64,000 bases of DNA from NCBI RefSeq assembly GCF_003018255.1, contig NZ_CP027440.1; one strand, 5' to 3'. The notes beneath the pieces were generated by a model. That model was not told where the DNA came from. It saw only the letters and a list, made by a program, of their open reading frames with translations, and did no database searches. Position numbers and translations under genes: made by a program. Below, piece by piece: positions 1,132 through 24,167 of this stretch (positions are counted from its first letter, which is position 1; each line of letters opens with the position of its first letter). This DNA comes from Escherichia coli. Its GTDB lineage: Bacteria > Pseudomonadota > Gammaproteobacteria > Enterobacterales > Enterobacteriaceae.

Positions 1132-1920
1132 TCATTTCAGCGTACAATCGCCACATTGCTGCACATCCGGTAAGCGATAACGCTGGCAGCAAGTGCGGCG
1201 CACCAGCAGGCCGTCGCGCAGTACCACGGTACGCCAGAGTGGATTATCTTCACCGTTCGTGAGCATTTTCTCAAAAAAGAGGGCATGGCGCAGCGATTCA
1301 ACCGTCGCCTCGCCAAGCAGCTGTTTCATCTCAGTCAGATACCAGTTGATCAAATAACCGGTATTGCTCCAGATAAGTTTGCCGTTGATCTCTCCCGTCG
1401 CTTCTAATGCCTGCACTACCGGAACAAGCGCCTGGCTGATTAACGTTTCCATTCGCTGCTGCGGCGAATGTAGTGTTGCGTTTTTATCTTCACACACATC
1501 GACCCAGAAACAGGCGGCGCGTCCGGTTTCGTGAAACTCAACGTGGAAATGTTCCGGCGACACATCTAATGCTTTTTCCTGCGTCAGCAGCGCCAACATT
1601 AATGGTGGCACCATCAGGCCGATATACCATTGTGCCCATAGTGAGATCAGCGGTTTGTTCTCGCGGATCATCAAGGGTTGGTTGCGGTAGATATGATCGG
1701 AATAGACCGCCAGTTGAGAACTTAGCGTATTCGGTGATGACCATTGCGCCAGCGTCATGGCACGGAGCGGTGCGGGTTCATCCAGACGGATAAACTCCAG
1801 CAAATGTTCACGATGTTCGGCGATCGTCGCCCGTACGGCTTGTGCAAGCCCAGCATCCTGCGGCTGGAGATGCGTTCGCCAGATAACATCTTCATAGAGC
1901 GGTGCGGAACGATAGGCCAT
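1132..1920 (-). CDS. fhuF: Ferric-siderophore reductase FhuF (2Fe-2S)
   Basis: 262-aa ORF, C-terminal Cys cluster (C-C-x-Y...C-x-x-C); expected length and synteny. Confidence 0.9.
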   Translation of the reverse strand: MAYRSAPLYEDVIWRTHLQPQDAGLAQAVRATIAEHREHLLEFIRLDEPAPLRAMTLAQWSSPNTLSSQLAVYSDHIYRNQPLMIRENKPLISLWAQWYIGLMVPPLMLALLTQEKALDVSPEHFHVEFHETGRAACFWVDVCEDKNATLHSPQQRMETLISQALVPVVQALEATGEINGKLIWSNTGYLINWYLTEMKQLLGEATVESLRHALFFEKMLTNGEDNPLWRTVVLRDGLLVRRTCCQRYRLPDVQQCGDCTLK

Positions 1921-1932
1921 AATCGTGATAGT

Positions 1933-1956
1933 AATCTAAATGATAATGATTGCTAA
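1933..1956. promoter_or_regulatory. Candidate Fur box upstream of fhuF
   Basis: aaatgataatgattgc matches the GATAATGATAATCATTATC Fur consensus core, directly upstream of the fhuF start. Confidence 0.45.
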
Positions 1957-2060
1957 TCCTAGCGATAGGTTTACCCGATAGCAAGGGATTTCTCTGGCTT
2001 GCAAATGATAAAGATTATCATATGATATTGGTTATCATTATCAATGAAAGAGATGAAACC

Positions 2061-2297
2061 ATGTTGCAACGTACGCTGGGCAGTGGCTGGGGAGTGTTGC
2101 TGCCGGGATTGCTGATTGCAGGGCTGATGTATGCGGATTTATCGCCGGATCAATGGCGGATTATCATTCTGATGGGATTAGTATTGACGCCGGCGATGCT
2201 GTATCACAAACAGTTGCGGCATTACGTTTTGCTGCCATCGTGCCTGGCGCTTATTGCTGGCATCATGCTGATGATAATGAATTTGAAGCAGGGATGA
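2061..2297 (+). CDS. yjjZ: Small hydrophobic membrane protein YjjZ
   Basis: 78-aa ORF from internal ATG of the 115-aa track ORF; expected position between fhuF and the tRNA-Leu cluster. Confidence 0.55.
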   Translation: MLQRTLGSGWGVLLPGLLIAGLMYADLSPDQWRIIILMGLVLTPAMLYHKQLRHYVLLPSCLALIAGIMLMIMNLKQG

Positions 2298-2336
2298 TAA
2301 AACAGGGAAGAAACAAGAAAGGAAGTAAAGATAATT

Positions 2337-2423
2337 GGTGCGAGGGGGGGGACTTGAACCCCCACGTCCGTAAGGACACTAACACCTGAAGCTAGCGCGT
2401 CTACCAATTCCGCCACCTTCGCA
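2337..2423 (-). tRNA. leuQ: tRNA-Leu (CAG), copy 1 of 3
   Basis: 87-nt reverse complement of the E. coli tRNA-Leu1 sequence including encoded CCA; anticodon CAG. Confidence 0.93.
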
Positions 2424-2457
2424 CAGTCATCTTACTTTTTTTGATATTGCCTCGTTT

Positions 2458-2544
2458 GGTGCGAGGGGGGGGACTTGAACCCCCACGTCCGTAAGAACAC
2501 TAACACCTGAAGCTAGCGCGTCTACCAATTCCGCCACCTTCGCC
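2458..2544 (-). tRNA. leuP: tRNA-Leu (CAG), copy 2 of 3, one substitution in the variable arm relative to copies 1 and 3
   Basis: Same 87-nt tRNA sequence; differs at position 2497 (a instead of g on the + strand). Confidence 0.9.
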
Positions 2545-2572
2545 CAGTGCGAGCAATATCAACGTGGTTTTT

Positions 2573-2659
2573 GGTGCGAGGGGGGGGACTTGAACCCCCA
2601 CGTCCGTAAGGACACTAACACCTGAAGCTAGCGCGTCTACCAATTCCGCCACCTTCGCA
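2573..2659 (-). tRNA. leuV: tRNA-Leu (CAG), copy 3 of 3
   Basis: Identical to copy 1; tandem array with short spacers. Confidence 0.93.
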
Positions 2660-2857
2660 TACCGTCAATTCTTAAAAAGAATTGCTACCACGGAGGCGCA
2701 TTCTAGTGGTTTTCAGCTTTTCGTCAATAGTTAATTATCGACAGAGGTGTAATTGCTGGAAAAATGTCCATCAGCGGATTGTGGATAATTCGTTTGTCGG
2801 TCAGATAAGGCGTGTACGCCGCATCCGACACGGTATGCGGCGATATATATCAGATAC

Positions 2858-3889
2858 TCAACCTTTCTTCGCCTGGCGGGTCATAATGGCGCGATACACC
2901 TTGAAGCGCCCGGTTTGCGCGATCACTTCGTGGAAGCCAAATGTCTCATCCAGCACGTCCGGATAAGGCAGGAAGGCGTTCGCTACAATTCGCAGCTCGC
3001 CGCCGCTATTAAGATGACGCACCGCGCCGCGAATCAGCGTTTGCGCGGCATCCAGGCTGGTTTGCATCCCATCGTGGAACGGCGGGTTGGAGATGATCAT
3101 ATCAAAACGACCTTTCACCTCGGAAAAGACGTTACTGGCAAAGACTTCACCTTCAACACCGTTGGCCGCAAGTGTTGCGCGGCTGGCTTCTACCGCTGGT
3201 GCAGAGACATCGCACAGAGTGAGACGAATTTTCGGCGAATGGCGCGCAAAGGCAACCGAAAGTACGCCCGCGCCACAGCCGACATCCAGCACTTTACCTT
3301 TCGTGTGCGGGGTTAACGTCGAGAGCAGCAACTGGCTACCGACATCCAGACCGTCGCGGCTAAACACGCCAGGCAGCGTTTTGACCGTCAGGCCATCGAC
3401 GCTGTATTCGCCCCAGAATTTATCGGCATCAAATACTGGCTGTTTTTCCAGACGACCAAAATAGAGGCCACAGCGACGAGCGCTGTCCATTTTATTCAAC
3501 GGCGCATAATCTGACAGCATCTGCTCGGCGCTGCGCACGCCGCTGCGGTTCTCGCCAACGACAAAAATATCCGTGCCCACTGGCAGCAGAGAAAGTAAAT
3601 TCATCAACTGGAACTGGGCTTCCGGTTTGTTCTTCGGCCAGTAGTAAATCAGCGTATCGCAATCTGCGACATCATCCGCCGTGGCGACCAGACTAAAACG
3701 GGCGTTATCCCCCATCTGGCGGCTTAACACCTGCCAGTGGTGGAATTGCTGGGTATGAGCACGGCTGGCCGCGGTATCTAAACGCGCGGGCAGGTCATCC
3801 TGTAAGTCTCCGGCAAAAAGAATACGGCTTTGTTCGAAATCATCACTGTGACGCAGCAAGACTTCACTTGCCGGGGTAAATGCAGACAT
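2858..3889 (-). CDS. rsmC: 16S rRNA (guanine1207-N2)-methyltransferase RsmC
   Basis: 343-aa ORF with SAM-binding motif ([11 protein letters not shown]) and NPPFH catalytic motif; synteny. Confidence 0.9.
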
Positions 3890-3991
3890 GGAATGCTCCT
3901 CAATTAATACTGGCGGCGATTATAGCCATATGTTGGCGCGGTATCGACGAATTTGCTATATTTGCGCCCCTGACAACAGGAGCGATTCGCT

Positions 3992-4405
3992 ATGACATCC
4001 CGACGAGACTGGCAGTTACAGCAACTGGGCATTACCCAGTGGTCGCTGCGTCGCCCTGGCGCGTTGCAGGGGGAGATTGCCATTGCGATCCCGGCACACG
4101 TCCGTCTGGTGATGGTGGCAAACGATCTTCCCGCCCTGACCGATCCTATAGTGAGCGATGTTCTGCGCGCGTTAACCGTCAGCCCCGATCAAGTGCTGCA
4201 ACTGACGCCAGAAAAAATCGCGATGCTGCCGCAAGGCAGTCGCTGCAACAGCTGGCGGTTGGGTACTGACGAACCGCTATCACTGGAAGGCGCTCAGGTG
4301 GCATCACCGGCGCTCACCGAATTACGGGCAAACCCAACGGCACGCGCCGCGTTATGGCAACAAATTTGCACATATGAACACGATTTCTTCCCTCGAAACG
4401 ACTGA
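3992..4405 (+). CDS. holD: DNA polymerase III subunit psi
   Basis: 137-aa ORF, expected length; 3' end overlaps rimI as in E. coli. Confidence 0.88.
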   Translation: MTSRRDWQLQQLGITQWSLRRPGALQGEIAIAIPAHVRLVMVANDLPALTDPIVSDVLRALTVSPDQVLQLTPEKIAMLPQGSRCNSWRLGTDEPLSLEGAQVASPALTELRANPTARAALWQQICTYEHDFFPRND

Positions 4406-4820
4406 TTTACCAGCGGCTTACCACATTGAACAACGCGCCCACGCCTTTCCGTGGAGTGAAAAAACCTTTGCCAGCAACCAGGGCGAGCGTTATCTCAACT
4501 TTCAGTTAACGCAAAACGGCAAAATGGCGGCGTTTGCGATTACGCAAGTGGTGCTGGATGAAGCTACATTGTTCAATATTGCGGTCGATCCTGACTATCA
4601 GCGTCAGGGATTGGGAAGGGCGCTGCTGGAACATCTGATCGACGAACTGGAAAAACGCGGCGTGGCGACGCTATGGCTGGAAGTCCGTGCTTCAAACGCT
4701 GCCGCCATTGCCCTGTACGAAAGTTTAGGCTTTAACGAGGCGACAATTCGCCGCAATTACTACCCCACCACGGACGGTCGCGAAGACGCCATCATCATGG
4801 CGTTGCCAATCAGTATGTAA
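4374..4820 (+). CDS. rimI: Ribosomal protein S18 alanine N-acetyltransferase (GNAT)
   Basis: 148-aa ORF with GNAT acetyl-CoA motif ([10 protein letters not shown]); overlaps holD. Confidence 0.9.
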
Positions 4821-4834
4821 GACAAGGTGGAATA

Positions 4835-5512
4835 ATGAAGTGGGACTGGATTTTCTTTGATGCCGATGAAACGCTGTTTACCTTTGACTCATTCACCGGC
4901 TTGCAGCGGATGTTTCTTGATTACAGCGTCACCTTTACCGCTGAAGATTTTCAGGACTATCAGGCCGTTAACAAGCCACTGTGGGTGGATTATCAAAACG
5001 GCGCGATCACTTCATTACAGCTTCAGCACGGGCGGTTTGAGAGCTGGGCCGAACGGCTGAACGTCGAGCCGGGTAAACTCAACGAAGCCTTTATTAATGC
5101 GATGGCGGAAATCTGTACGCCACTGCCGGGCGCGGTTTCTCTGCTTAACGCCATTCGTGGCAACGCTAAAATTGGCATCATCACCAACGGCTTTAGCGCC
5201 TTGCAGCAAGTGCGTCTGGAACGCACGGGCCTGCGTGATTATTTCGATTTGCTGGTGATTTCCGAAGAAGTTGGCGTTGCCAAACCGAATAAGAAAATTT
5301 TCGATTATGCGCTGGAACAGGCAGGCAATCCTGACCGTTCACGTGTGCTGATGGTTGGCGACACAGCTGAGTCCGATATTCTCGGTGGCATCAACGCCGG
5401 GCTTGCGACCTGCTGGCTGAATGCGCACAATCGCGAGCAACCAGAAGGCATCGCGCCCACCTGGACCGTTTCTTCGTTGCACGAACTGGAGCAGCTCCTG
5501 TGTAAACACTGA
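4835..5512 (+). CDS. yjjG: HAD-family pyrimidine 5'-nucleotidase YjjG
   Basis: 225-aa ORF starting with the HAD motif I (FFDADETL). Confidence 0.88.
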
Positions 5513-5602
5513 TTGCCTCCCCCCCGTTGATGGGTAAAATAGCCGCAATTTTTCGTTTTCAACAAGCGCGGCGCGATGCCGCTTACTCAAGAAGAAAGAA
5601 TT

Positions 5603-7192
5603 ATGACGTTGTCTCCTTATTTGCAAGAGGTGGCGAAGCGCCGCACTTTTGCCATTATTTCTCACCCGGACGCCGGTAAGACTACCATCACCGAGAAGGT
5701 GCTGCTGTTCGGACAGGCCATTCAGACCGCCGGTACAGTAAAAGGCCGTGGTTCCAACCAGCACGCTAAGTCGGACTGGATGGAGATGGAAAAGCAGCGT
5801 GGGATCTCCATTACTACGTCTGTGATGCAGTTTCCGTATCACGATTGCCTGGTTAACCTGCTCGACACCCCGGGGCACGAAGACTTCTCGGAAGATACCT
5901 ATCGTACCCTGACGGCGGTGGACTGCTGCCTGATGGTTATCGACGCCGCAAAAGGTGTTGAAGATCGTACCCGTAAGCTGATGGAAGTTACCCGTCTGCG
6001 CGACACGCCGATCCTCACCTTTATGAACAAACTTGACCGTGATATCCGCGACCCGATGGAGCTGCTCGATGAAGTTGAGAACGAGCTGAAAATCGGCTGC
6101 GCACCGATCACCTGGCCGATTGGCTGCGGCAAGCTGTTTAAAGGCGTTTACCACCTTTATAAAGATGAAACCTATCTCTATCAGAGCGGTAAAGGCCACA
6201 CGATTCAGGAAGTCCGCATTGTTAAAGGGCTGAATAACCCGGATCTCGACGCTGCGGTTGGTGAAGATCTGGCACAGCAGCTACGTGACGAACTGGAGCT
6301 GGTGAAAGGCGCGTCTAACGAGTTCGACAAAGAGCTGTTCCTTGCGGGCGAAATCACTCCGGTATTCTTCGGTACTGCGCTGGGTAACTTCGGCGTTGAT
6401 CATATGCTGGATGGCCTGGTGGAGTGGGCTCCTGCGCCGATGCCGCGTCAGACTGATACCCGTACCGTAGAGGCGAGCGAAGACAAATTTACCGGCTTCG
6501 TATTTAAAATTCAGGCCAACATGGACCCGAAACACCGCGACCGCGTGGCGTTTATGCGTGTGGTGTCCGGTAAATATGAAAAAGGCATGAAGCTGCGCCA
6601 GGTGCGTACTGCGAAAGATGTGGTGATCTCCGACGCGCTGACCTTTATGGCGGGTGACCGTTCGCACGTTGAAGAAGCGTATCCTGGCGATATCCTTGGT
6701 CTGCACAACCACGGCACCATTCAGATCGGCGACACCTTTACCCAGGGTGAGATGATGAAGTTCACCGGTATTCCGAACTTCGCGCCAGAACTGTTCCGTC
6801 GTATCCGCCTGAAAGATCCGCTGAAGCAAAAACAGCTGCTTAAAGGGCTGGTACAGCTTTCCGAAGAGGGCGCGGTGCAGGTGTTCCGTCCGATCTCCAA
6901 CAACGATCTGATCGTTGGTGCGGTTGGTGTGCTGCAGTTTGATGTGGTGGTAGCGCGTCTGAAGAGCGAATACAACGTTGAAGCAGTGTATGAGTCAGTC
7001 AACGTTGCCACTGCCCGCTGGGTAGAATGTGCGGACGCGAAGAAATTCGAAGAGTTCAAGCGTAAGAACGAAAGCCAACTGGCGCTTGATGGCGGCGATA
7101 ACCTCGCTTACATCGCTACCAGCATGGTCAACCTGCGCCTGGCGCAGGAACGTTATCCAGACGTTCAGTTCCACCAGACCCGCGAGCATTAA
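5603..7192 (+). CDS. prfC: Peptide chain release factor 3 (GTPase)
   Basis: 529-aa product from ATG 5603 with RBS; G1 P-loop [12 protein letters not shown] and DTPGHEDF motifs. Confidence 0.93.
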
Positions 7193-7202
7193 TTCTTGCC
7201 TC

Positions 7203-7235
7203 CAGGGCGCGGTAGCCGCTGCGCCCTGTCAATTT
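7203..7235 (+). terminator. Putative terminator after prfC
   Basis: GC-rich inverted repeat cagggcgcggtagccgctgcgccctg directly after the prfC stop. Confidence 0.5.
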
Positions 7236-7584
7236 CCCTTCCTTATTAGCCGCTTACGGAATGTTCTTAAAACATTCACTTTTGCTTATGTTTTCGCTGA
7301 TATCCCGAGCGGTTTCAAAATTGTGATCTATATTTAACAAAGTAATGACATTTCTGACGGCGTTAAATACCGTTCAATGCGTAGATATCAGTATCTAAAG
7401 CCGTCGATTGTCATTCTACCGATATTAATAACTGATTCAGAGGCTGTAATGGTCGTTATTCATCACCCATCGCTTTTGTGATGGCGGCCATTGACTTCTG
7501 TAGAGGGTGAAGTCTCTCCCTATTCAGCAATGCAACCTCGTGTTGCCAGGCTCAAATTACGAGCAAACATACAGGAATAAATCG

Positions 7585-8191
7585 ATGACTATGACAAGAC
7601 TGAAGATTTCGAAAACTCTGCTGGCTGTAATGTTGACCTCTGCCGTCGCGACCGGCTCTGCCTACGCGGAAAACAACGCACAGACTACCAATGAAAGCGC
7701 AGGGCAAAAAGTCGATAGCTCTATGAATAAAGTCGGTAATTTCATGGATGACAGCGCCATCACCGCGAAAGTGAAGGCGGCGCTGGTGGATCATGACAAC
7801 ATCAAGAGCACCGATATCTCTGTCAAAACCGATCAAAAAGTCGTGACCCTGAGCGGTTTCGTTGAAAGCCAGGCTCAGGCCGAAGAGGCAGTGAAAGTGG
7901 CGAAAGGCGTTGAAGGGGTGACCTCTGTCAGCGACAAACTGCACGTTCGCGACGCTAAAGAAGGCTCGGTGAAGGGCTACGCGGGTGACACCGCCACCAC
8001 CAGTGAAATCAAAGCCAAACATGCTGGCGGACGATATCGTCCCTTCCCGTCATGTGAAAGTTGAAACCACCGACGGCGTGGTTCAGCTCTCCGGTACCGT
8101 CGATTCCCAGGCACAGAGCGACCGTGCTGAAAGTATCGCCAAAGCGGTAGATGGTGTGAAAAGCGTTAAAAATGATCTGAAAACTAAGTAA
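7585..8191 (+). pseudogene. osmY: osmY (periplasmic BON-domain osmotic stress protein) interrupted by a +1 frameshift near 8019-8021
   Basis: N-terminal 145 residues are in frame 1 (ORF ending 8064), the second BON domain is in frame 2 (ORF 7985..8191); span is 607 nt, one more than the 606 nt needed for 201 aa plus stop. Confidence 0.8.
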
Positions 8192-8317
8192 TTCGTCGTA
8201 ATTCGTCCTCCCGAACTTTGTCGGGAGGCGCGATGTGCACCACACTAAAAATATCGCATTGAGTGATTTTCACGCTCATATCAAGCGGTGACATTAACTA
8301 TGGTAAAGGAGACGCTT

Positions 8318-8479
8318 ATGTTTCGTTGGGGCATCATATTTCTGGTTATCGCGTTAATCGCCGCCGCACTTGGGTTTGGTGGTCTGGCCGGTACCGCTGC
8401 AGGCGCAGCTAAAATTGTCTTTGTCGTCGGGATTATTCTGTTCCTGGTGAGTTTGTTCATGGGCCGAAAACGACCCTAG
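8318..8479 (+). CDS. ytjA: Small membrane protein YtjA (DUF1328 family)
   Basis: 53-aa hydrophobic ORF from internal ATG; followed by a hairpin terminator. Confidence 0.6.
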
Positions 8480-8510
8480 ATTTCAGACCATTAAGAAAAT
8501 TTTATCCAAA

Positions 8511-8534
8511 GCCAGTCCAGCGGACTGGCTTTTG
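8511..8534 (+). terminator. Rho-independent terminator after ytjA
   Basis: gccagtccagcggactggc hairpin followed by tttt. Confidence 0.6.
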
Positions 8535-8600
8535 CGGTTTTAGCGAATAATAAATTGCGTTACTTTGTCATTCTTTCACAACAAAAACAGGAAGGCAGAG

Positions 8601-9674
8601 GTGGGGCAGCGAATACCTGTAACGCTTGGTAATATTGCGCCGTTGTCGCTAAGGCCGTTCCAGCCTGGACGAATAGCTCTGGTGTGCGAAGGCGGCGGAC
8701 AGCGTGGAATTTTCACGGCTGGCGTGCTGGATGAGTTTATGCGCGCGCAGTTTAATCCTTTCGATCTTTATCTCGGCACATCTGCCGGGGCGCAGAACCT
8801 CTCGGCGTATATCTGCAATCAGCCCGGTTACGCGCGCAAAGTCATCATGCGCTATACCACAAAACGCGAATTTTTCGATCCATTGCGCTTTGTCCGTGGA
8901 GGAAATCTTATCGATCTCGACTGGCTGGTGGAGGCCACTGCAAGCCAGATGCCGTTGCAAATGGATACCGCCGCGCGGTTGTTTGACAGCGGCAAATCGT
9001 TTTATATGTGCGCCTGTCGTCAGGATGACTATGCGCCGAATTACTTTTTACCAACCAAACAAAACTGGCTGGATGTGATTCGCGCCTCCAGTGCGATACC
9101 TGGCTTTTATCGTAGCGGAGTGTCGCTGGAAGGCATTAACTACCTGGATGGCGGGATCAGTGATGCGATTCCGGTTAAAGAGGCGGCAAGGCAGGGAGCA
9201 AAAACCTTGGTCGTCATCCGCACCGTGCCGTCGCAAATGTACTACACGCCGCAGTGGTTCAAACGCATGGAACGCTGGCTGGGTGACAGTAGCCTGCAGC
9301 CGCTGGTCAATCTGGTGCAGCATCATGAAACCAGCTATCGTGACATTCAGCAATTTATTGAGAAACCACCGGGCCAGCTGCGGATATTCGAAATTTATCC
9401 GCCGAAGCCGTTGCATAGTATCGCGCTTGGCAGTCGGATTCCGGCGCTGCGTGAAGACTATAAACTTGGGCGTTTATGCGGTCGTTATTTTCTGGCAACG
9501 GTCGGTAAGTTATTGACTGAAAAAGCGCCGCTTACCCGCCATCTGGTGCCGGTGGTGACGCCGGAATCGATTGTCATTCCGCCTGCGCCAGTCGCCAACG
9601 ATACGCTGGTTGCCGAAGTGATCGACGCTCCGCAGGCGAACGACCCGACATTTAACAATGAGGATCTGGCTTGA
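8601..9674 (+). CDS. yjjU: Patatin-like phospholipase family protein YjjU
   Basis: 357-aa product from GTG 8601; patatin motifs GGGQRG and GTSAG. Confidence 0.8.
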   Translation: MGQRIPVTLGNIAPLSLRPFQPGRIALVCEGGGQRGIFTAGVLDEFMRAQFNPFDLYLGTSAGAQNLSAYICNQPGYARKVIMRYTTKREFFDPLRFVRGGNLIDLDWLVEATASQMPLQMDTAARLFDSGKSFYMCACRQDDYAPNYFLPTKQNWLDVIRASSAIPGFYRSGVSLEGINYLDGGISDAIPVKEAARQGAKTLVVIRTVPSQMYYTPQWFKRMERWLGDSSLQPLVNLVQHHETSYRDIQQFIEKPPGQLRIFEIYPPKPLHSIALGSRIPALREDYKLGRLCGRYFLATVGKLLTEKAPLTRHLVPVVTPESIVIPPAPVANDTLVAEVIDAPQANDPTFNNEDLA

Positions 9675-10450
9675 TTTGCCGTTTTATCGACACCCACTGC
9701 CATTTTGATTTCCCGCCTTTTAGTGGTGATGAAGAGGCCAGCCTGCAACGCGCGGCACAAGCGGGCGTAGGCAAGATCATTGTTCCGGCGACAGAGGCGG
9801 AAAATTTTGCCCGCGTGCAGGCGTTAGCGGAAAAATATCAACCGCTGTATGCCGCATTGGGCTTGCATCCTGGTATGTTGAAAAAACATAGCGATGTGTC
9901 TCTTGATCAGCTACAGCAGGCGCTGGAAAGGCGTCCGGCGAAGGTGGTGGCGGTGGGGGAGATCGGTCTGGATCTCTTCGGCGACGATCCGCAATTTGAG
10001 AGGCAGCAGTGGTTACTCGACGAACAACTGAAACTGGCGAAACGCTACGATCTGCCGGTGATCCTGCATTCACGGCGCACACACGACAAACTGGCGATGC
10101 ATCTTAAACGCCACGATTTGCCACGCACTGGCGTGGTTCACGGTTTTTCCGGCAGCCTGCAACAGGCCGAAAGGTTTGTACTGCTGGGCTACAAAATCGG
10201 CGTAGGCGGTACTATCACCTATCCACGCGCCAGTAAAACCCGCGATGTCATCGCAAAATTACCGCTGGCATCGTTGTTGCTGGAAACCGACGCGCCGGAT
10301 ATGCCGCTCAACGGCTTTCAGGGGCAGCCTAACCGCCCGGAACAGGCTGCGCGGGTGTTTGACGTACTTTGCGAGTTACGCCCGGAACCAGAAGATGAGA
10401 TTGCCGAAGTGTTGCTAAATAATACGTATACGTTGTTTAACGTGCCGTAG
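9671..10450 (+). CDS. yjjV: TatD-family metal-dependent hydrolase/DNase YjjV
   Basis: 259-aa ORF; N-terminal DTHCH metal-binding motif typical of the TatD family; start overlaps yjjU stop. Confidence 0.85.
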   Translation: MICRFIDTHCHFDFPPFSGDEEASLQRAAQAGVGKIIVPATEAENFARVQALAEKYQPLYAALGLHPGMLKKHSDVSLDQLQQALERRPAKVVAVGEIGLDLFGDDPQFERQQWLLDEQLKLAKRYDLPVILHSRRTHDKLAMHLKRHDLPRTGVVHGFSGSLQQAERFVLLGYKIGVGGTITYPRASKTRDVIAKLPLASLLLETDAPDMPLNGFQGQPNRPEQAARVFDVLCELRPEPEDEIAEVLLNNTYTLFNVP

Positions 10451-10670
10451 GCCGGATAAGGCGTTCACGCCGCATCCGGCAGTTGGCGCACAATGCCTGA
10501 TGCGACGCTTGACGCGTCTTATCATGCCTACAAGTCTGTGCCGAACCGTAGGCCGGATAAGGCGTTCACGCCGCATCCGGCAGCTGGCGCACAATGCCTG
10601 ATGCGACGCTTGACGCATCTTATCATGCCTACAGGTCTGTGCCGATCCGTAGGCCGTATCCGGCATGTCA
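10448..10670. repeat. BIME/REP-type intergenic repeat: about 101-bp unit in two tandem copies plus a partial third
   Basis: Unit taggccggataaggcgttcacgccgcatccggcag...gtctgtgccgaaccg recurs at about 10448 and 10549, with a partial copy at about 10649; contains the REP palindrome gccggataaggcgttcacgccgcatccggc. Confidence 0.75.
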
Positions 10671-11531
10671 CAAATATAGCGCCGGAAATATTAACCGGCT
10701 CACCCCGCGCTCCCATAACGCATCAGCCAGTTGTTCCACATCCTCCGGCGTGGCGCTCGGCCAGCTTTGCGCCTCGCCATACACGCCGTGGGCATGAAAC
10801 GCGTTCAGGCGTACCGGAACATCGCCAAGTCCCTTGATTAACGCCGCCAGTTCTTCGATGTGTTGCAAATAATCCACCTGGCCAGGGATTACCAGCAAAC
10901 GCAGTTCCGCCAGCTTACCGCGCTCTGCCAGCAAACAGATGCTGCGCTTGATCTGCTGATTATCGCGTCCGGTTAATTGCTGATGACATTCGCTCCCCCA
11001 CGCTTTGAGATCGAGCATTGCGCCGTCGCACACCGGAAGCAATTTTTCCCAGCCGGTTTCGCTCAACATGCCATTACTGTCCACCAGACAGGTGAGGTGG
11101 CGCAGTTGCGGATCGTTTTTGATAGCAGTAAACAGCGCCACCACAAACGGTAGCTGGGTCGTGGCTTCGCCGCCGCTTACCGTTATCCCTTCGATAAACA
11201 GCACTGCTTTGCGGATATGGCTAAGCACCTCATCCACGCTCATGGACTGCGCCATTGGCGTGGCATGTTGCGGACACATCTTCAGGCAGGTATCACATTG
11301 CTCGCAGACCACAGCGTTCCACACCACTTTGCCGTCGACAATCTGCAACGCCTGATGCGGACACTGCGGCACGCACTCTCCGCAATCATTACAGCGCCCC
11401 ATCGTCCACGGATTGTGACAGTTTTTGCAGCGCAGATTGCAGCCCTGCAAAAACAGAGCCAGACGACTGCCTGGCCCGTCAACGCAGGAGAAGGGGATAA
11501 TCTTACTGACTAAAGCGCATCTGCTGTTCAT
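10668..11531 (-). CDS. yjjW: Glycyl-radical enzyme activating protein (radical SAM, with ferredoxin-like Cys clusters) YjjW
   Basis: 287-aa ORF; several CxxCxxC-type cysteine clusters; co-directional with and overlapping yjjI. Confidence 0.85.
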
Positions 11532-13053
11532 GGCTTATCACGCGCGGCTGGCGTTCCAGAATACGAGTGTTGCGTGCGGCTTCTTCTCCCAGCCAGGTGG
11601 TGTTGGTGCGTGAACCTTCGGCGCGATATTTTTCTAAATCCGACAAACGCACCATATAACCGGTAACGCGAACCAGATCGTTACCGCTGACATTGGCGGT
11701 AAATTCACGCATTCCGGCTTTAAAGGCACCGAGGCAAAGCTGTACCAGCGCCTGCGGATTACGTTTGATGGTTTCGTCGAGCGTCAGAATGTCGCTGATG
11801 CCGGAATAATAATAAGCATGATGCGGGGCGACAGTTTGCAGATGGGTAATCGGATCTGGCTCATCACCATACGGCAAGCGTGCGCCAGGCGTGGTGCCGA
11901 TATCGGAACTGATCCCCGACTGTGCGTGTAGCATGGCGCGTTTTTGCCAGCCATATTTCACGGGGGTATTGGCGACAAACTCCGCCAGTTGTGCGCTGAT
12001 GCGATAACCCACTTCATTTGCGGCGGCTTCTTTACCGTAGCGCGCGGCAATCCCTTCTTTCTCACACAGCAAGTTAACTGCTTCCGCCAATCCGTACATG
12101 CCAAACATTGGCACAAAACGTTCAGGGTTAATCAGCCCTTCTTTCACCAGGAAGCTATTCTCAAAGAAGTGTGATTGTTGATAGAGGAATTCACACCGCG
12201 CATCGATGATGGCGATCTGCTGCTGGCAGTAGTGCGGTAGAGTGCGTGTAAAGAAGTCATCCAGCGATTCACTGCGCTCGGCAATGGCTTTCAGGTTAAG
12301 GCGTACCAGCGTGCTGCCACCACCCGCCAGCGGCAGTGAGTTGTAACAGCTCACAATCCCGTAGCCCCCTTTTGTGAAAATTTTATCATGCACCGGACCG
12401 TTGGCGATGTGCGGTTTGCTACATTCACAGAGGTTCTTCGCCACTTCCAGCAGTAGGTCATCAGGGGTGATTTCAGGATCGTAGATAAAGGTCAGGTTCG
12501 GTGAAACCTGCTTCAACTCTGCGTCTGCACGTAAGATCGCGCGGGTAATGGGCGAATCAGACGGGCCGATATTGGCGTGCATAAAGGCGTCTGGCAGGGT
12601 TCTGTCGAGGTAACGCCAGAAACGTTTTATTCGAATATCGATCTCGTCTTGTGTTAGAATTCTAACATACGGTTGCAACAACGCATCCAGTTGCCCCAGG
12701 TAGACCGGCATCGATGTGACCGATGGTACGTGGTGGTAAAGAATGGTCAGCAGAGAGAGTGCATCATCAAGATCTTTCGCGCCTTCCAGCTCCAGCCATT
12801 CGGAACCGTTCGCCAGAAAACGGGCGTAATCGGGTAAGACATAGCGCGGTTTGTACGGCGCATGACCTTCAAACATATCGCAGATTACACCTTCATCCAG
12901 CGCGCGGCGGGCTTCGGCAGGAAGCTGTGGGTAAGGCAGATTGTTTTCTGCTTCCAGTGCCAGAAAATGGCGCTTCTGCTCCGGGCTAAGTACCGGGCTG
13001 GTGACAATTTGCTGGCAACGTTGTTGCAGTGCATTTTCATGAGAAGTGGGCAT
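11503..13053 (-). CDS. yjjI: Uncharacterised glycyl-radical-enzyme-like protein YjjI
   Basis: 516-aa ORF at the expected position upstream of deoC; family assignment from memory of the E. coli yjjI-yjjW pair. Confidence 0.8.
12373..12388. promoter_or_regulatory. Candidate DeoR operator OE (imperfect palindrome)
   Basis: tgtgaaaattttatca lies 279 bp upstream of the O1 palindrome, matching the known deo operator spacing. Confidence 0.4.
12652..12667. promoter_or_regulatory. DeoR operator O1 (deo P1), embedded in the yjjI coding sequence
   Basis: Perfect 16-bp palindrome tgttagaattctaaca; 599 bp upstream of the second palindrome. Confidence 0.7.
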
Positions 13054-13250
13054 CTTCTTTTCCTTTTATGCCGAAGGTGATGCGCCATTGTAAGAAGTTT
13101 CGTGATGTTCACTTTGATCCTGATGCGTTTGCCACCACTGACGCATTCATTTGAAAGTGAATTATTTGAACCAGATCGCATTACAGTGATGCAAACTTGT
13201 AAGTAGATTTCCTTAATTGTGATGTATATCGAAGTGTGTTGCGGAGTAGA

Positions 13251-13266
13251 TGTTAGAATACTAACA
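13251..13266. promoter_or_regulatory. DeoR operator O2 (deo P2)
   Basis: tgttagaatactaaca 45 bp upstream of the deoC start; preceded by CRP/CytR-like tgtga motifs. Confidence 0.7.
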
Positions 13267-13310
13267 AACTCGCAAGGTGAATTTTATTGGCGACAAGCCA
13301 GGAGAATGAA

Positions 13311-14090
13311 ATGACTGATCTGAAAGCAAGCAGCCTGCGTGCACTGAAATTGATGGACCTGACCACCCTGAATGACGACGACACCGACGAGAAAGTAATT
13401 GCTCTGTGTCATCAGGCCAAAACTCCGGTCGGCAATACCGCCGCTATCTGTATCTATCCTCGCTTTATCCCAATTGCTCGCAAAACGCTGAAAGAGCAGG
13501 GTACCCCGGAAATCCGTATCGCTACGGTAACCAACTTCCCACACGGTAACGACGACATCGAAATCGCGCTGGCAGAAACCCGTGCGGCAATCGCCTACGG
13601 TGCTGATGAAGTTGACGTTGTGTTCCCGTACCGCGCGCTGATGGCGGGTAACGAGCAGGTTGGTTTTGACCTGGTGAAAGCCTGTAAAGAGGCTTGCGCG
13701 GCAGCGAATGTACTGCTGAAAGTGATCATCGAAACCGGCGAACTAAAAGACGAAGCGCTGATCCGTAAAGCGTCTGAAATCTCCATCAAAGCGGGTGCGG
13801 ACTTCATCAAAACCTCTACCGGTAAAGTGGCTGTGAACGCGACGCCGGAAAGCGCGCGCATCATGATGGAAGTGATCCGTGATATGGGCGTAGAAAAAAC
13901 CGTTGGTTTCAAACCGGCGGGCGGCGTGCGTACTGCGGAAGATGCGCAGAAATATCTCGCCATCGCCGATGAACTGTTCGGTGCTGACTGGGCTGATGCG
14001 CGTCACTACCGCTTTGGTGCTTCCAGCCTGCTGGCAAGCCTGCTGAAAGCTCTGGGCCACGGCGACGGTAAGAGCGCCAGCAGCTACTAA
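13311..14090 (+). CDS. deoC: Deoxyribose-phosphate aldolase
   Basis: 259-aa product ([24 protein letters not shown]...) from internal ATG of the 267-aa track ORF. Confidence 0.93.
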
Positions 14091-14167
14091 GGCTTGATTT
14101 GCCGGATGATGCAGCGATGCTCATCCGGTTCCCCGATTACCTCGTCTCTTTTCCACGGGAGGTTACC

Positions 14168-15490
14168 TTGTTTCTCGCACAAGAAATTATTCGTAAAAAA
14201 CGTGATGGTCATGCGCTGAGCGATGAAGAAATTCGTTTCTTTATCAACGGTATTCGCGACAACACTATCTCCGAAGGGCAGATTGCCGCCCTCGCGATGA
14301 CCATTTTCTTCCACGATATGACAATGCCTGAGCGTGTCTCGCTGACCATGGCTATGCGAGATTCAGGAACCGTTCTCGACTGGAAAAGCCTGCATCTGAA
14401 TGGCCCGATTGTTGATAAACACTCGACCGGCGGCGTCGGCGATGTCACTTCGCTGATGTTGGGGCCGATGGTCGCAGCCTGCGGCGGCTATATTCCGATG
14501 ATCTCCGGTCGCGGCCTCGGTCATACTGGCGGTACGCTCGACAAACTGGAATCCATCCCTGGCTTCGACATTTTCCCGGATGACAACCGTTTCCGCGAAA
14601 TTATTAAAGACGTCGGCGTGGCGATTATCGGCCAGACCAGCTCACTGGCTCCGGCGGATAAACGTTTCTACGCGACCCGTGATATTACCGCAACCGTGGA
14701 CTCCATCCCGCTGATCACTGCCTCTATTCTGGCGAAGAAACTGGCGGAAGGTCTGGACGCGCTGGTGATGGACGTGAAAGTAGGTAGCGGCGCGTTTATG
14801 CCGACCTACGAACTCTCTGAAGCCCTTGCCGAAGCGATTGTTGGCGTGGCTAACGGCGCTGGCGTGCGCACCACCGCGCTGCTCACCGATATGAATCAGG
14901 TACTGGCCTCCAGTGCAGGTAACGCGGTTGAAGTTCGTGAAGCGGTGCAGTTCCTGACGGGTGAATATCGTAACCCGCGTCTGTTTGATGTCACGATGGC
15001 ACTGTGCGTGGAGATGCTGATCTCCGGCAAACTGGCGAAAAATGACGCCGAAGCGCGCGCGAAATTGCAGGCGGTGCTGGACAACGGTAAAGCGGCAGAA
15101 GTCTTTGGTCGTATGGTCGCGGCACAAAAAGGCCCGACCGACTTCGTTGAGAACTACGCGAAGTATCTGCCGACAGCGATGCTGACGAAAGCAGTCTATG
15201 CTGATACCGAAGGGTTTGTCAGTGAAATGGATACCCGCGCACTGGGGATGGCAGTGGTTGCAATGGGCGGCGGACGCCGTCAGGCATCTGACACCATCGA
15301 TTACAGCGTCGGCTTTACTGATATGGCGCGTCTGGGCGACCAGGTAGACGGTCAGCGTCCGCTGGCAGTTATCCACGCGAAAGACGAAAACAGCTGGCAG
15401 GAAGCGGCGAAAGCGGTGAAAGCGGCAATTAAACTTGCCGATAAAGCACCGGAAAGCACACCAACTGTCTATCGCCGTATCAGCGAATAA
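14168..15490 (+). CDS. deoA: Thymidine phosphorylase
   Basis: 440-aa product if initiated at TTG 14168 ([15 protein letters not shown]...), which is the start I recall for E. coli deoA; the track ORF extends upstream. Confidence 0.88.
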
Positions 15491-15520
15491 CGGTATACTG
15501 ATCTGATCATTTAAATTTGA

Positions 15521-16765
<1,245 letters not shown>

Positions 16766-16821
16766 TGGATTTGGGCGGAGCAGTGACTCCGCCTTTAATA
16801 TGTCACAAAAAGGATAAAACG

Positions 16822-17541
16822 ATGGCTACTCCACACATTAATGCAGAAATGGGCGATTTTGCTGACGTAGTTTTGATGCCAGGCGACCCGCTGCGTGCGA
16901 AGTATATTGCTGAAACTTTCCTTGAAGATGCCCGTGAAGTGAACAACGTTCGCGGTATGCTGGGCTTCACCGGTACTTATAAAGGCCGCAAAATTTCCGT
17001 AATGGGTCACGGTATGGGTATCCCGTCCTGCTCCATCTACACCAAAGAACTGATCACCGATTTCGGCGTGAAGAAAATTATCCGCGTAGGTTCCTGTGGT
17101 GCTGTTCTGCCGCACGTAAAACTGCGTGACGTCGTTATCGGTATGGGTGCCTGCACCGATTCCAAAGTTAACCGCATCCGTTTTAAAGACCATGACTTTG
17201 CCGCTATCGCTGACTTCGACATGGTGCGTAACGCGGTAGACGCGGCAAAAGCACTGGGCGTTGATGCTCGCGTTGGTAACCTGTTCTCCGCTGACCTGTT
17301 CTACTCTCCGGACGGCGAAATGTTCGACGTGATGGAAAAATACGGCATCCTCGGCGTGGAAATGGAAGCGGCTGGTATCTACGGCGTCGCTGCAGAATTT
17401 GGCGCGAAAGCCCTGACCATCTGCACCGTGTCTGACCACATCCGCACTCACGAGCAGACCACTGCCGCTGAGCGTCAGACCACCTTCAACGACATGATCA
17501 AAATCGCGCTGGAATCCGTTCTGCTGGGCGATAAAGAGTAA
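16822..17541 (+). CDS. deoD: Purine nucleoside phosphorylase DeoD-type
   Basis: 239-aa product ([28 protein letters not shown]...) from internal ATG. Confidence 0.93.
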
Positions 17542-17572
17542 TTGTGTTTTGCTGAAAGGCGATTGTCGTGTG

Positions 17573-17603
17573 AAGCCGGAGTGGGAGACTGCTCCGGCTT
17601 TTT
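17573..17603 (+). terminator. Rho-independent terminator of the deo operon
   Basis: agccggagtgggagactgctccggct hairpin followed by ttttt. Confidence 0.8.
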
Positions 17604-17701
17604 AGTATTTATTCATCAATAGCAACTGATTTATAGATTTACTATTATTTTTCATATGGATAGAAAATAAAATCCATTCAAGTATCTATTCACGAATCTA
17701 T

Positions 17702-17965
17702 TCATTTATGTTCAGCCGTCATCCAGGAAGGGCATATCAGCAACTCTGGTGGACAACCATAAATTCCTGCCATTTTGCTTTTGATGTTTGAACTAAGCCG
17801 TTCCGTCTTTTCGATCTGTTTTAGAGAATTAATGGAGATACCTAACATTTTACTTACTTCAGCAAGTGATAGTTTATGCCTGATACGCACGGCGGTTAGC
17901 CAGGATATACCCTGGCTGAACATTAAATTGATAATCTCCCGTTCCTGGTTTTCCAGATCGATCAT
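17702..17965 (-). CDS. Hypothetical 87-aa XRE/Cro-type HTH protein, strain-specific (occupies the position of yjjJ in K-12)
   Basis: ORF with RBS-like agggaagga upstream of its ATG; HTH-like segment LSLAEVSKMLGISINSLKQIE; sits in an AT-rich segment between the deoD terminator and lplA. Confidence 0.45.
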   Translation of the reverse strand: MIDLENQEREIINLMFSQGISWLTAVRIRHKLSLAEVSKMLGISINSLKQIEKTERLSSNIKSKMAGIYGCPPELLICPSWMTAEHK

Positions 17966-17996
17966 ATTTCCTTCCCTGGATATTTTAATCAGCGAG

Positions 17997-19013
17997 TTAC
18001 CTTACCGCCCCTGCCATCCACGCTGACAACTCCCGTAGCTCTTTTTCCTGTTCCGGGAAGTCAACCAGCAGCGCTTCGCACTCCTGTTGCAGCATATCCG
18101 CGCGGTACAGACAGCCTTGCAGTCGCCCGGCGAGGGCTTCCAGCGGCGCGGGGTTGAGACTGTCGGTAAACACCTGGGCGCGGGTGATATGGCCTTTTTC
18201 AACGTCGAAATGCAGTTCCACGCCGCCCCAGGTAAAGCGTTCATCCAGCAGATGCGAGAATGCCGGAGCCTGACCGAAGTTCCATTCCCAGCTACTCTGG
18301 CGGGCAAAGGTTTCGGCGAAGTTTGGCAAGTCTGGCGTTTTGTCCGGGGAGATGATTTCCGCTTCCACGCGCTCGCCATAATGGGCGAAAAAGGCCTCGG
18401 TTATGGCCTCGCAAACCTGCTCATGGGTGATCCCCGGTAGCAATTCGGTCAGATTGGTCACGCGGGAACGCACTGAGGTAATGCCTTTCGCCGCCAGTTT
18501 CTTTTTATCCGGATTGAGATAGTTTGCCAGGCGGCTAAGGTCGGAATTGAGCAGCAAAGTGCCGTGGTGGAAGCCACGATCTTTGGTTTCGCGATAGGCC
18601 GAGCCTGAGACTTTGCGATCGCCTTCGGCGGTTTTCACCACCAGATCGTTACGCCCGGAAGCTTCGGCGCTGACGCCGAGCGCGTTCAGCGCATTGAGCA
18701 CAATCGACGTGGAGATGGTTTTATCGTACTCCGGCTTGCCAGCCATAAAGGTAAAACAGGTATTGCCGAGATCGTGGAACACTGCGCCGCCACCGCTACT
18801 GCGCCGCGCCAGGCGGACGTTATCTTCTTCCATCCGCCGGGTATTACACTCTTTCCACGGGTTCTGCGCGCGACCAATCACTACCGTGTCGGCATTGCGC
18901 CAGAGAAACAGAACGCGCTGCGTAGCCGGCATCTGGCGAAAAATACACTCCTCTACCGCCAGGTTAAACCACGGGTCGTAAGAGTCAGAGATGAGCAGGC
19001 GTAATGTGGACAT
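17997..19013 (-). CDS. lplA: Lipoate-protein ligase A
   Basis: 338-aa ORF ([25 protein letters not shown]...), expected length. Confidence 0.93.
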
Positions 19014-19040
19014 AACGATTTCCTTTCTTGTAGTAATGGG

Positions 19041-19685
19041 TCACTCTTTTTTCTCGCTTTCTTCCTCTTCCGGCACCGGTTTACTGGCGGTTAACAGGAA
19101 GGGCGATTGCTGCCAGCGGGTGCGTTTACCCTGTAGCAGCGTGCGGGTCAGCACTACGCCGATTGCCAGTGAGAGCAGCAACATCAGGCGTAAAATGTTA
19201 GTGGTGTTATCCACCTGTTGGGCTTCGGTGGCGAGCGTATGGGTGTCGAGCGTAAGGCGCAGATAGCCGAGCGGTCCGTTTTTCCCGGCAATAGGTTCGA
19301 CAATCTGCTGGTTAAAATAGCCGCCCGCTTTTTTGCCGTCGAGCGCCAACCGGTCGCGCACTTCGACGCTTTCGCCAGAACGGGCGATAAGATCGCCTTG
19401 TTCGTCATACACGCCCGCGTCGAGGATACGGCCTTCATCCGTTAACTGATCAAGGATCGCCTGAATGCGTTTTTCATCCGGTGAGTCGGTACGCATCAGC
19501 GGTGCAACGTTCAGCGTCACCTGACGCGCCAGGGTGCGGGCCAGTTCTTCCAGCTGTGGATTACGCTGTCGCTGGTGGTTTTGACTAAACCATGACGCTC
19601 CCTGCATCAGCGCCACTAACAAGGCAAGACAGAACAGGACAATCACTGCCCGATGCAGCCGGAATTTCAGTTTTGTGCGAGCCAT
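19041..19685 (-). CDS. ytjB: Inner membrane protein YtjB (Smp)
   Basis: 214-aa ORF with N-terminal TM segment; divergent from serB. Confidence 0.8.
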   Translation of the reverse strand: MARTKLKFRLHRAVIVLFCLALLVALMQGASWFSQNHQRQRNPQLEELARTLARQVTLNVAPLMRTDSPDEKRIQAILDQLTDEGRILDAGVYDEQGDLIARSGESVEVRDRLALDGKKAGGYFNQQIVEPIAGKNGPLGYLRLTLDTHTLATEAQQVDNTTNILRLMLLLSLAIGVVLTRTLLQGKRTRWQQSPFLLTASKPVPEEEESEKKE

Positions 19686-19790
19686 CTTCCACCCTTTGAA
19701 AATTTGAGACTTAATGTTGCCAGAAGCAATGGATACAAGGTAGCCTCATGCGTTATTTTCCCTGCTTCGAACGATTTTACAGGAGCCTTA

Positions 19791-20759
19791 ATGCCTAACA
19801 TTACCTGGTGCGACCTGCCTGAAGATGTCTCTTTATGGCCGGGTCTGCCTCTTTCATTAAGTGGTGATGAAGTGATGCCACTGGATTACCACGCAGGTCG
19901 TAGCGGCTGGCTGCTGTATGGTCGTGGACTGGATAAACAACGTCTGACCCAATACCAGAGCAAACTGGGCGCGGCGATGGTGATTGTTGCCGCCTGGTGC
20001 GTGGAAGATTATCAGGTGATTCGTCTGGCAGGTTCACTCACCGCGCGGGCTACGCGCCTGGCCCACGAAGCGCAGCTGGATGTCGCGCCGCTGGGGAAAA
20101 TCCCGCACCTGCGCACGCCGGGTTTGCTGGTGATGGACATGGATTCCACCGCCATCCAGATTGAATGTATTGATGAAATTGCCAAACTGGCCGGAACGGG
20201 CGAGAGGGTGGCGGAGGTAACCGAACGGGCGATGCGCGGCGAACTCGATTTTACCGCCAGCCTGCGCAGCCGCGTGGCGACGCTGAAAGGCGCTGACGCC
20301 AATATTCTGCAACAGGTGCGTGAAAATCTGCCGCTGATGCCAGGCTTAACGCAGCTGGTACTCAAGCTGGAAACGCTGGGCTGGAAAGTGGCGATTGCCT
20401 CCGGCGGCTTTACTTTCTTTGCTGAATACCTGCGCGACAAGCTGCGCCTGACAGCAGTGGTAGCCAATGAACTGGAGATCATGGACGGTAAATTTACCGG
20501 CAATGTGATCGGCGACATCGTTGACGCGCAATATAAAGCGAAAACCCTGACCCGCCTCGCGCAGGAGTATGAAATCCCGCTGGCGCAGACCGTGGCGATT
20601 GGCGATGGAGCCAATGACCTGCCGATGATCAAAGCGGCAGGGCTGGGGATTGCCTACCATGCCAAGCCAAAAGTGAATGAAAAGACGGAAGTCACCATCC
20701 GTCACGCTGACCTGATGGGGGTATTCTGCATCCTCTCTGGCAGCCTGAATCAGAAGTAA
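19791..20759 (+). CDS. serB: Phosphoserine phosphatase (HAD family)
   Basis: 322-aa product from ATG 19791; HAD motif I LLVMDMDSTAI and motif GDGANDL. Confidence 0.9.
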   Translation: MPNITWCDLPEDVSLWPGLPLSLSGDEVMPLDYHAGRSGWLLYGRGLDKQRLTQYQSKLGAAMVIVAAWCVEDYQVIRLAGSLTARATRLAHEAQLDVAPLGKIPHLRTPGLLVMDMDSTAIQIECIDEIAKLAGTGERVAEVTERAMRGELDFTASLRSRVATLKGADANILQQVRENLPLMPGLTQLVLKLETLGWKVAIASGGFTFFAEYLRDKLRLTAVVANELEIMDGKFTGNVIGDIVDAQYKAKTLTRLAQEYEIPLAQTVAIGDGANDLPMIKAAGLGIAYHAKPKVNEKTEVTIRHADLMGVFCILSGSLNQK

Positions 20760-20807
20760 TTGCCTGCCCGTCATCCTGCGGGCGGCACAGCATTAACGAG
20801 GTACACC

Positions 20808-22190
20808 GTGGCAAAAGCTCCAAAACGCGCCTTTGTTTGTAATGAATGCGGGGCCGATTATCCGCGCTGGCAGGGGCAGTGCAGCGCCTGTCATGCCTGG
20901 AACACCATCACCGAGGTGCGTCTTGCTGCGTCGCCAACGGTGGCGCGTAACGAGCGTCTCAGTGGCTATGCCGGTAGCGCCGGAGTGGCAAAAGTCCAGA
21001 AACTTTCCGACATCAGCCTTGAGGAGCTGCCGCGTTTTTCCACCGGATTTAAAGAGTTCGACCGCGTATTAGGCGGCGGGGTGGTGCCGGGAAGCGCCAT
21101 TCTGATTGGCGGTAACCCAGGTGCGGGGAAATCCACGCTGTTGCTGCAAACGCTGTGCAAACTGGCGCAGCAGATGAAAACGCTGTATGTCACTGGCGAA
21201 GAGTCGCTGCAACAGGTGGCAATGCGCGCTCATCGCCTTGGCCTGCCGACTGACAATCTTAATATGCTGTCGGAAACCAGCATCGAGCAGATCTGCCTGA
21301 TTGCCGAAGAAGAGCAACCGAAGCTGATGGTAATTGACTCCATCCAGGTGATGCATATGGCGGATGTTCAGTCATCGCCTGGCAGCGTGGCGCAGGTGCG
21401 TGAAACGGCGGCTTATCTGACGCGCTTCGCCAAAACGCGCGGCGTGGCGATTGTCATGGTTGGGCACGTAACCAAAGATGGCTCGCTGGCTGGCCCTAAA
21501 GTGCTGGAACACTGTATCGACTGTTCGGTGCTTCTGGATGGCGATGCCGACTCTCGTTTTCGCACCTTACGCAGCCATAAAAACCGCTTCGGCGCGGTGA
21601 ATGAGCTGGGCGTCTTCGCGATGACCGAACAGGGGCTGCGTGAAGTTAGCAACCCTTCCGCCATCTTTTTAAGCCGCGGTGATGAAGTGACCTCCGGTAG
21701 CTCAGTGATGGTAGTGTGGGAAGGAACGCGTCCACTGTTGGTGGAGATCCAGGCGCTGGTCGATCACTCGATGATGGCGAACCCACGCCGCGTCGCAGTA
21801 GGGCTGGAGCAAAACCGTCTGGCAATCCTGCTGGCGGTGCTGCACCGTCACGGTGGGTTGCAAATGGCCGATCAGGATGTATTTGTTAACGTGGTCGGCG
21901 GCGTGAAGGTAACGGAAACCAGCGCCGACTTAGCGTTACTGCTGGCGATGGTTTCCAGCCTGCGCGACAGACCGCTGCCGCAGGATCTGGTGGTGTTTGG
22001 TGAAGTCGGGCTGGCAGGGGAGATCCGCCCGGTGCCCAGCGGCCAGGAACGAATTTCTGAAGCGGCGAAACACGGTTTTCGCCGGGCGATTGTTCCGGCG
22101 GCTAACGTGCCGAAAAAAGCGCCGGAAGGGATGCAGATTTTTGGCGTTAAAAAACTCTCCGACGCGCTTAGCGTGTTCGACGACTTATAA
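20808..22190 (+). CDS. radA: DNA repair protein RadA (Sms)
   Basis: 460-aa product from GTG 20808; N-terminal C4 zinc finger (CNECG...CSAC), Walker A GNPGAGKST, Lon-like C-terminal domain. Confidence 0.92.
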   Translation: MAKAPKRAFVCNECGADYPRWQGQCSACHAWNTITEVRLAASPTVARNERLSGYAGSAGVAKVQKLSDISLEELPRFSTGFKEFDRVLGGGVVPGSAILIGGNPGAGKSTLLLQTLCKLAQQMKTLYVTGEESLQQVAMRAHRLGLPTDNLNMLSETSIEQICLIAEEEQPKLMVIDSIQVMHMADVQSSPGSVAQVRETAAYLTRFAKTRGVAIVMVGHVTKDGSLAGPKVLEHCIDCSVLLDGDADSRFRTLRSHKNRFGAVNELGVFAMTEQGLREVSNPSAIFLSRGDEVTSGSSVMVVWEGTRPLLVEIQALVDHSMMANPRRVAVGLEQNRLAILLAVLHRHGGLQMADQDVFVNVVGGVKVTETSADLALLLAMVSSLRDRPLPQDLVVFGEVGLAGEIRPVPSGQERISEAAKHGFRRAIVPAANVPKKAPEGMQIFGVKKLSDALSVFDDL

Positions 22191-22210
22191 TGAGAGATAC
22201 GGAGGGAGAT

Positions 22211-23443: not shown

Positions 23444-23534
23444 TCATCTTTATAAGATGTTGAGTGGGATTACTGATTCAAAAGTGTACTTAGTACTCCA
23501 TTTTGGTGTACAATGTACCTTCCAGGGAGGGGTA

Positions 23535-23867: not shown

Positions 23868-23868
23868 A

Positions 23869-24153
23869 ATGAGTTTTTTTGATGAGTTGAAAACCTCTCT
23901 GGAAGAGGCTGTCGAGATTAAACAAGGTTTAAAAGAACCTGCACGGGTGACCCGCTACGAAATTGCGGATGTTAAAGCTATTCGTGAGCAACTCAACGTT
24001 TCGCAAAGTGAGATGGCAAAAGCTCTGGGAACCAGTGTGGATACCATTAAAAGCTGGGAATCGAAGCGAAGAAATCCTACGGGATTGGCTGCAAAAGTAC
24101 TTGCCACAATTAAAGAAAATCCTGACTTTTTCCGGGAACTTGCCTCCCATTAA
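23869..24153 (+). CDS. Type II antitoxin, XRE-type HTH, HigA-2-like
   Basis: 94-aa ORF starting 1 nt after the toxin stop; HTH segment SQSEMAKALGTSVDTIKSWE. Confidence 0.7.
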   Translation: MSFFDELKTSLEEAVEIKQGLKEPARVTRYEIADVKAIREQLNVSQSEMAKALGTSVDTIKSWESKRRNPTGLAAKVLATIKENPDFFRELASH

Positions 24154-24167
24154 TCATTTAACTAATA

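Follow-up and report, generated by a model that had tools for sequence, protein, structure and literature searches.

The window analysed here, a 64,000 nt stretch of Escherichia coli chromosome, extends from yjjQ/bglJ through prfC, osmY and the deo and thr operons to dnaK and finally dapB. Within it, the gene order prfC - osmY - ytjA - yjjU matches that of annotated E. coli records. The osmY gene is non-essential and induced by osmotic stress. Its product, a periplasmic protein with two BON domains, differs from DolP and Kbp (PMC7806268) and is represented in E. coli by a 201 aa polypeptide (WP_001295748.1; NCBIfam NF007858, 'molecular chaperone OsmY'; PDB 8rjx) encoded at this same prfC-osmY-ytjA-yjjU locus; in DNA sequence, the window gene matches the osmY of many E. 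coli genomes at 606 of 607 positions.

Structure of the osmY locus

In the window, osmY occupies 7585..8191 on the + strand, a length of 607 nt with two open reading frames (ORFs), which confirms an earlier sequence-only reading that the gene is one nucleotide longer than 201 codons require. That reading also placed a single inserted base near 8019..8021, and alignment to intact osmY locates exactly one extra base, an A at 8021 in the context gccaaac[A]tgctggc, the gene being otherwise unchanged. This A is the only gap in alignments with the osmY genes of E. coli both near-identical and further removed (21F61, JNE23-011, JNE112863 and GCA_031299525.2), and the window gene is identical to osmY of many E. 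coli genomes save for one gap (606/607); because the 607 nt are otherwise identical to so many copies, the pattern is not attributable to chance. There is no homopolymer at the inserted A, and neither a Dam (GATC) nor a Dcm (CCWGG) site.

The insertion alters codon 146, starting at 8020, from CTG to CAT, with a stop 14 codons further on (Table 1). Frame 1, starting at the ATG at 7585, consequently encodes 159 aa, of which 145 are native and 14 aberrant, rather than the six aberrant residues previously counted. In frame 2, the ORF called mechanically spans 7985..8191 and comprises 68 aa from a GTG start; a shorter reading of 56 aa begins at the ATG at 8021..8023, a codon that is itself created by the inserted A. 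The premature stop and the second ORF in another frame were thus both correctly described at the outset. Judged from these alignments, osmY as written is a frameshift pseudogene, generated by a 1 nt insertion relative to every intact orthologue aligned.

Table 1. Positions of the osmY fragments, the lesion and flanking features in the window
Feature	Position	Strand	Description and basis
prfC-osmY intergenic region	7193..7584	+	Unchanged relative to relatives with intact osmY
osmY 5' fragment	7585..8064	+	Frame 1, 159 codons and stop; ORF list, translation, Pfam BON, NCBIfam NF007858
Inserted A	8021..8021	+	Between C and T, frameshift at codon 146; sole alignment gap
osmY 3' fragment	8021..8191	+	Frame 2, native residues 146-201 (most of BON2) and native TAA; translation, Pfam, NCBIfam
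Premature TGA, frame 1	8062..8064	+	ORF list, translation
Perfect 8 bp inverted repeat cctcccga / tcgggagg	8207..8228	+	Just 3' of the osmY stop; read from sequence

The expression signals of osmY, including its promoter, presumably lie in the prfC-osmY intergenic region. On the other side of the gene, the inverted repeat following the native stop could form a hairpin that is the likely end of the osmY transcript, even though a scan for terminators made no call at this position, where a T-run is absent after the hairpin. A polar effect of the lesion on ytjA was considered and appears unlikely, as osmY is followed directly after its native stop by this hairpin of its own and ytjA lies 126 nt downstream.

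Domain content of the two fragments

The 5' fragment comprises the signal peptide (residues 1-28), a complete first BON domain (BON1), the linker, the first residues of the second BON domain (BON2) and the 14 out-of-frame residues. Its match to Pfam BON (E = 6.2e-21) covers residues 55-122 and profile positions 1-68, such that BON1 is complete and does not end at the premature stop, as had been suggested; instead, the shift falls around 12 Pfam profile positions into BON2. The remainder of BON2 is found in the 3' fragment, which matches profile positions 13-67 (E = 7.6e-18) and is without a signal peptide. All BON2 codons are therefore present in the window, although the extra A at codon 146 places this domain out of frame with the 159 aa product, in contrast to the 201 aa dual-BON protein of other E. 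coli, with which the signal peptide and BON1 are shared. Codons 1-145, among them those for the N-terminal Sec signal peptide, do not differ in DNA sequence from relatives whose OsmY is intact, and the first residue of the OsmY construct in PDB 8rjx, residue 29, following the sequence ...SAYA, fits with cleavage of the signal peptide after that motif.

When compared with the OsmY model NF007858, for which the equivalog cut-off is 174 bits, the 5' fragment scores 248 bits, with residues 1-145 aligned to model positions 1-149, and hence qualifies as a member of the family. The 56 aa 3' piece scores 109 bits over model positions 150-205, and the intact OsmY of a relative 367 bits. The two pieces abut exactly on the model, at positions 149 and 150, meaning that nothing is missing from the window osmY and that the two ORFs are fragments of one split gene, as first proposed. 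The intact OsmY of the relative carries both BON stretches in one 201 aa protein, as had been anticipated for this gene; in the window, by comparison, no single Sec-exported polypeptide of approximately 201 aa contains the two domains, BON1 and BON2 being in separate frames.

Distribution of the insertion

A megablast search with osmY was made against 5,426 complete RefSeq genomes of E. coli, 5,423 of which contain the gene. None of these 5,423 carries the same insertion, the best match being 606/607 and never 607/607. Similarly, a 27-mer across the insertion had no exact match in collections of genome or metagenome contigs, and every contig retrieved by way of the adjacent YjjU, using short flanks, had an osmY intact at 201 aa. 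Nor was the insertion found among the loci that were fetched, with the wild-type 23-mer being present in all eight that have the site in common flanking sequence. By these searches, the osmY insertion is private to this assembly. The exact 159 aa and 56 aa products do occur in a collection of 15 billion proteins, where their sources are given as 'NCBI, Logan' and the record lists only one contig, of 4,892,666 bp.

Other truncated forms of OsmY are nonetheless found in public data, and these resemble the window allele in ending in short out-of-frame tails. The variant P0003 is 124 aa long, ends ...KLHVSRR* and is present on 45 contigs, including a 5.35 Mb chromosome; P0015 is likewise 124 aa and P0002 is 181 aa. 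By codon reading, P0003 and P0015 would represent +1 insertions in a TT run and a GGGG run that lead to a common out-of-frame TAA. The lesions of these three alleles map to approximately codons 111-122 and codon 174, as opposed to codon 146 in the window, and at least two fall within short homopolymers, whereas the window allele does not and is found in one genome only.

Comparison with near-identical relatives

The comparison with closely related strains that had been proposed as a check on the lesion reveals an intact osmY of 201 codons, without the extra A, in GCA_031299525.2, JNE23-011 and JNE112863. The contig of GCA_031299525.2 (L007) aligns to 1502..23041 of the window, and over these 21.5 kb the two sequences differ at just three places, namely the A at 8021, a SNP at 16435 and one 12 bp repeat unit at 17686. 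Against JNE23-011 and JNE112863, the extra A is the sole difference within 5626..12431 of the window, and from 38 to 64 kb only four SNPs and no indels separate the window from these two strains.

The difference at 17686 is intergenic, just 3' of a small HTH gene on the - strand (17705..17965), and consists of a change in the copy number of a small repeat, with one unit of CATTCAAGTATC in the window and two tandem copies in GCA_031299525.2. Repeats of other kinds are also found in the window. A REP-like element of approximately 96 bp at 28557..28652 separates trpR from yjjX, and is absent from JNE23-011 and JNE112863, in which the two genes overlap; the trpR of the window is intact and ends ...LLKSD*. 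Two REP-derived naRNA4 copies lie between yjjV and yjjW, at 10450..10528 and 10551..10629, and the first of these contains a 1 bp T difference from 21F61 at 10509, where the near-identical relatives match the window. Searches with Rfam additionally identified RNAs that are expected here: the Thr leader (37262..37381), tpke11 (51046..51123) and, on the - strand, sokC (52508..52660), whose neighbour mokC is intact. Three tRNA genes were also identified on the - strand at 2339..2658, and in the matching region of 21F61 these are annotated as tRNA-Leu. The dnaJ-nhaA region is uninterrupted by IS elements, and JNE23-011 is identical there, likewise without an IS.

Relative to the JNE strains, SNPs are concentrated in two dense tracts, one at approximately 14.1-17.9 kb, from deoA to the HTH gene, and the other at approximately 28.6-38 kb, from yjjX to yjtD, outside which there are almost no differences. 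GCA_031299525.2 shares the window alleles in the first tract, and from the sequence comparison the tracts look like a mosaic produced by recombination. In JNE23-011 and JNE112863, the end of a prophage, with tail fibre, DUF1653 and DinI-like genes, adjoins the start of prfC (L003 1..6200; L005 1..13260), and the homology of these strains with the window starts at 5626, the 5' end of prfC; the yjjG-prfC junction is uninterrupted in the window and in GCA_031299525.2. The two recombination tracts, together with the prophage beside prfC in the closest complete genomes, account for the identity of only 98.7% to E. coli obtained for the first 25 kb of the window at first comparison. An origin in Shigella, or in a degraded or error-rich genome, was considered and rejected, given this explanation of the low identity, the 64 other genes found intact and the lack of IS elements.

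Local quality of the assembly

When 65 reference genes were checked by tblastn in the window, osmY alone was split and the other 64 were intact. Across the approximately 58 kb aligned to near-identical relatives, no other 1 bp indel was found. The part of the window spanning the aligned stretch, 1502..64000, includes 254 homopolymers of at least 5 nt, 68 of which are of at least 6 nt, and wherever relatives aligned there were no 1 bp differences in homopolymer length. From these comparisons, the assembly looks accurate in the window rather than error-prone.

A real mutation or an artefact

The sequence-only reading left undecided whether osmY had undergone real pseudogenisation or reflected an error of assembly, and the context described above leans modestly towards the former. 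We infer that the insertion is present in the cells, and the slightly favoured view is that a non-essential stress/chaperone gene has here lost its function through a real mutation of very recent origin. The clean local assembly, in which 64 of the 65 genes are intact, no other 1 bp indel is present and homopolymers are concordant, supports this interpretation, and the strain itself belongs to a separate lineage, set apart from its relatives by scattered SNPs of its own, leaving time for real mutations to have arisen. The occurrence of other, independent osmY frameshift alleles in public data indicates that loss of the gene is tolerated. Furthermore, since Logan assembles public read sets independently, the 'Logan' label on the 159 aa and 56 aa products hints at read-level support for the insertion. 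Weighing against a real mutation, the insertion is found in one assembly only, the record with the 'Logan' label lists a single contig, and GCA_031299525.2 is near-identical yet intact; at so small a distance (a single SNP over 21.5 kb), a true 1 bp indel is beforehand about as improbable as a stray error.

An artefact is accordingly a serious competitor, albeit one given somewhat less than an even chance and placed behind a real mutation. In this case the osmY of the strain would be intact, with 201 codons, and the A at 8021 would be a consensus or polishing error of a long-read-based chromosome. The source contig is a closed chromosome of 4.89 Mb, which implies long-read assembly, and the errors left over in such assemblies are most commonly single-base indels. 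More than 5,400 genomes yield no second instance of the insertion, and it accounts for one of just three differences over 21.5 kb that separate the window from a near-identical draft genome in which osmY is intact. There is precedent in the work of Cooley and Wright (2024), where pseudogene differences between nearly identical genomes were often assembly artefacts, many of the frameshift pseudogenes separating such genomes being shown to be artefactual (PMC11017572). However, errors in long-read consensus sequences concentrate in homopolymers, and the extra base lies outside these as well as outside Dam and Dcm sites. Other indel noise is also absent from the window, including from its 254 longer homopolymers where these could be aligned, and the frameshifted products are credited to Logan read-set assemblies too.

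A further interpretation, that the split osmY is still functional, either through a +1 ribosomal slip generating near-native OsmY or through the production of two separate single-BON proteins, is highly improbable. A +1 slip at CGU CCC UUC (CCC-U, 8041..8044) would return the ribosome to the native frame at Pro153, and the resulting product would be of native length with seven substituted residues at the start of BON2; low-level production of protein from frameshifted bacterial pseudogenes has been reported for Salmonella (PMC9122581). The insertion also creates an in-frame ATG from which the BON2 piece could be translated. Nevertheless, as the insertion is in none of the 5,423 genomes and conserved in no relative, no signal for recoding can have been selected, and the folding of the RNA in this region is unexceptional (z = -1.9). 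No Shine-Dalgarno-like (SD-like) motif is present in the 20 nt before the ATG at 8021, cagtgaaatcaaagccaaac, and the product initiated at this codon would lack a signal peptide, putting the periplasm out of its reach. A likeness to the +1 frameshifting of prfB extends to the direction of the shift only: unlike prfB, the window osmY has neither conservation of the shift nor an internal SD stimulator, nor a slippery codon and stop at the shift site. Over the codons at positions 8020 to 8064, a search for a prfB-like stimulator found neither an SD-like element nor a slippery codon with a stop after it, nor was there a shift-prone codon that has a stop or rare codon beside it and an SD-like stimulator upstream. 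Programmed frameshifting or recoding was thus rejected, the shift not being conserved and the signals being absent. It would be similarly far-fetched to regard osmY as a 'pseudo-pseudogene', whether through a slip at CCC-U giving a low level of full-length OsmY or through a BON1-only product that keeps chaperone activity as a natural domain-dissection allele.

Consequences for OsmY

If the favoured reading of a real mutation holds, transcription and Sec export would be expected to proceed, the upstream region and first 145 codons being unchanged. The exported product would be 159 aa long, or 131 aa following cleavage of the signal peptide, and would consist of an intact BON1, the linker and a nonsense tail of 14 residues. 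The BON2 piece, having neither a ribosome-binding site nor a signal peptide, would probably be made poorly or effectively not at all, and any that was produced would not be exported and would stay in the cytoplasm. These fates of the products are predicted from the reading frames and the signals retained in each fragment.

Whichever reading holds, a singleton frameshift of this type needs confirmation at the level of reads before a pseudogene is called. Should the A prove to be an artefact, the outcome is a one-base correction to a genome record; the lesion is an ordinary single-base frameshift in a well-known gene, in one assembly, with little import beyond the strain. Should it be real, the strain would be without full-length OsmY, a protein that, according to a review (PMC8151025, citing Yan et al. 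2019), has been reported to assist in the biogenesis of autotransporters that self-associate, Ag43 among them. Aggregation or biofilm formation might then be modestly impaired, as might tolerance of osmotic stress, and the strain would offer a natural BON1-only allele of osmY.
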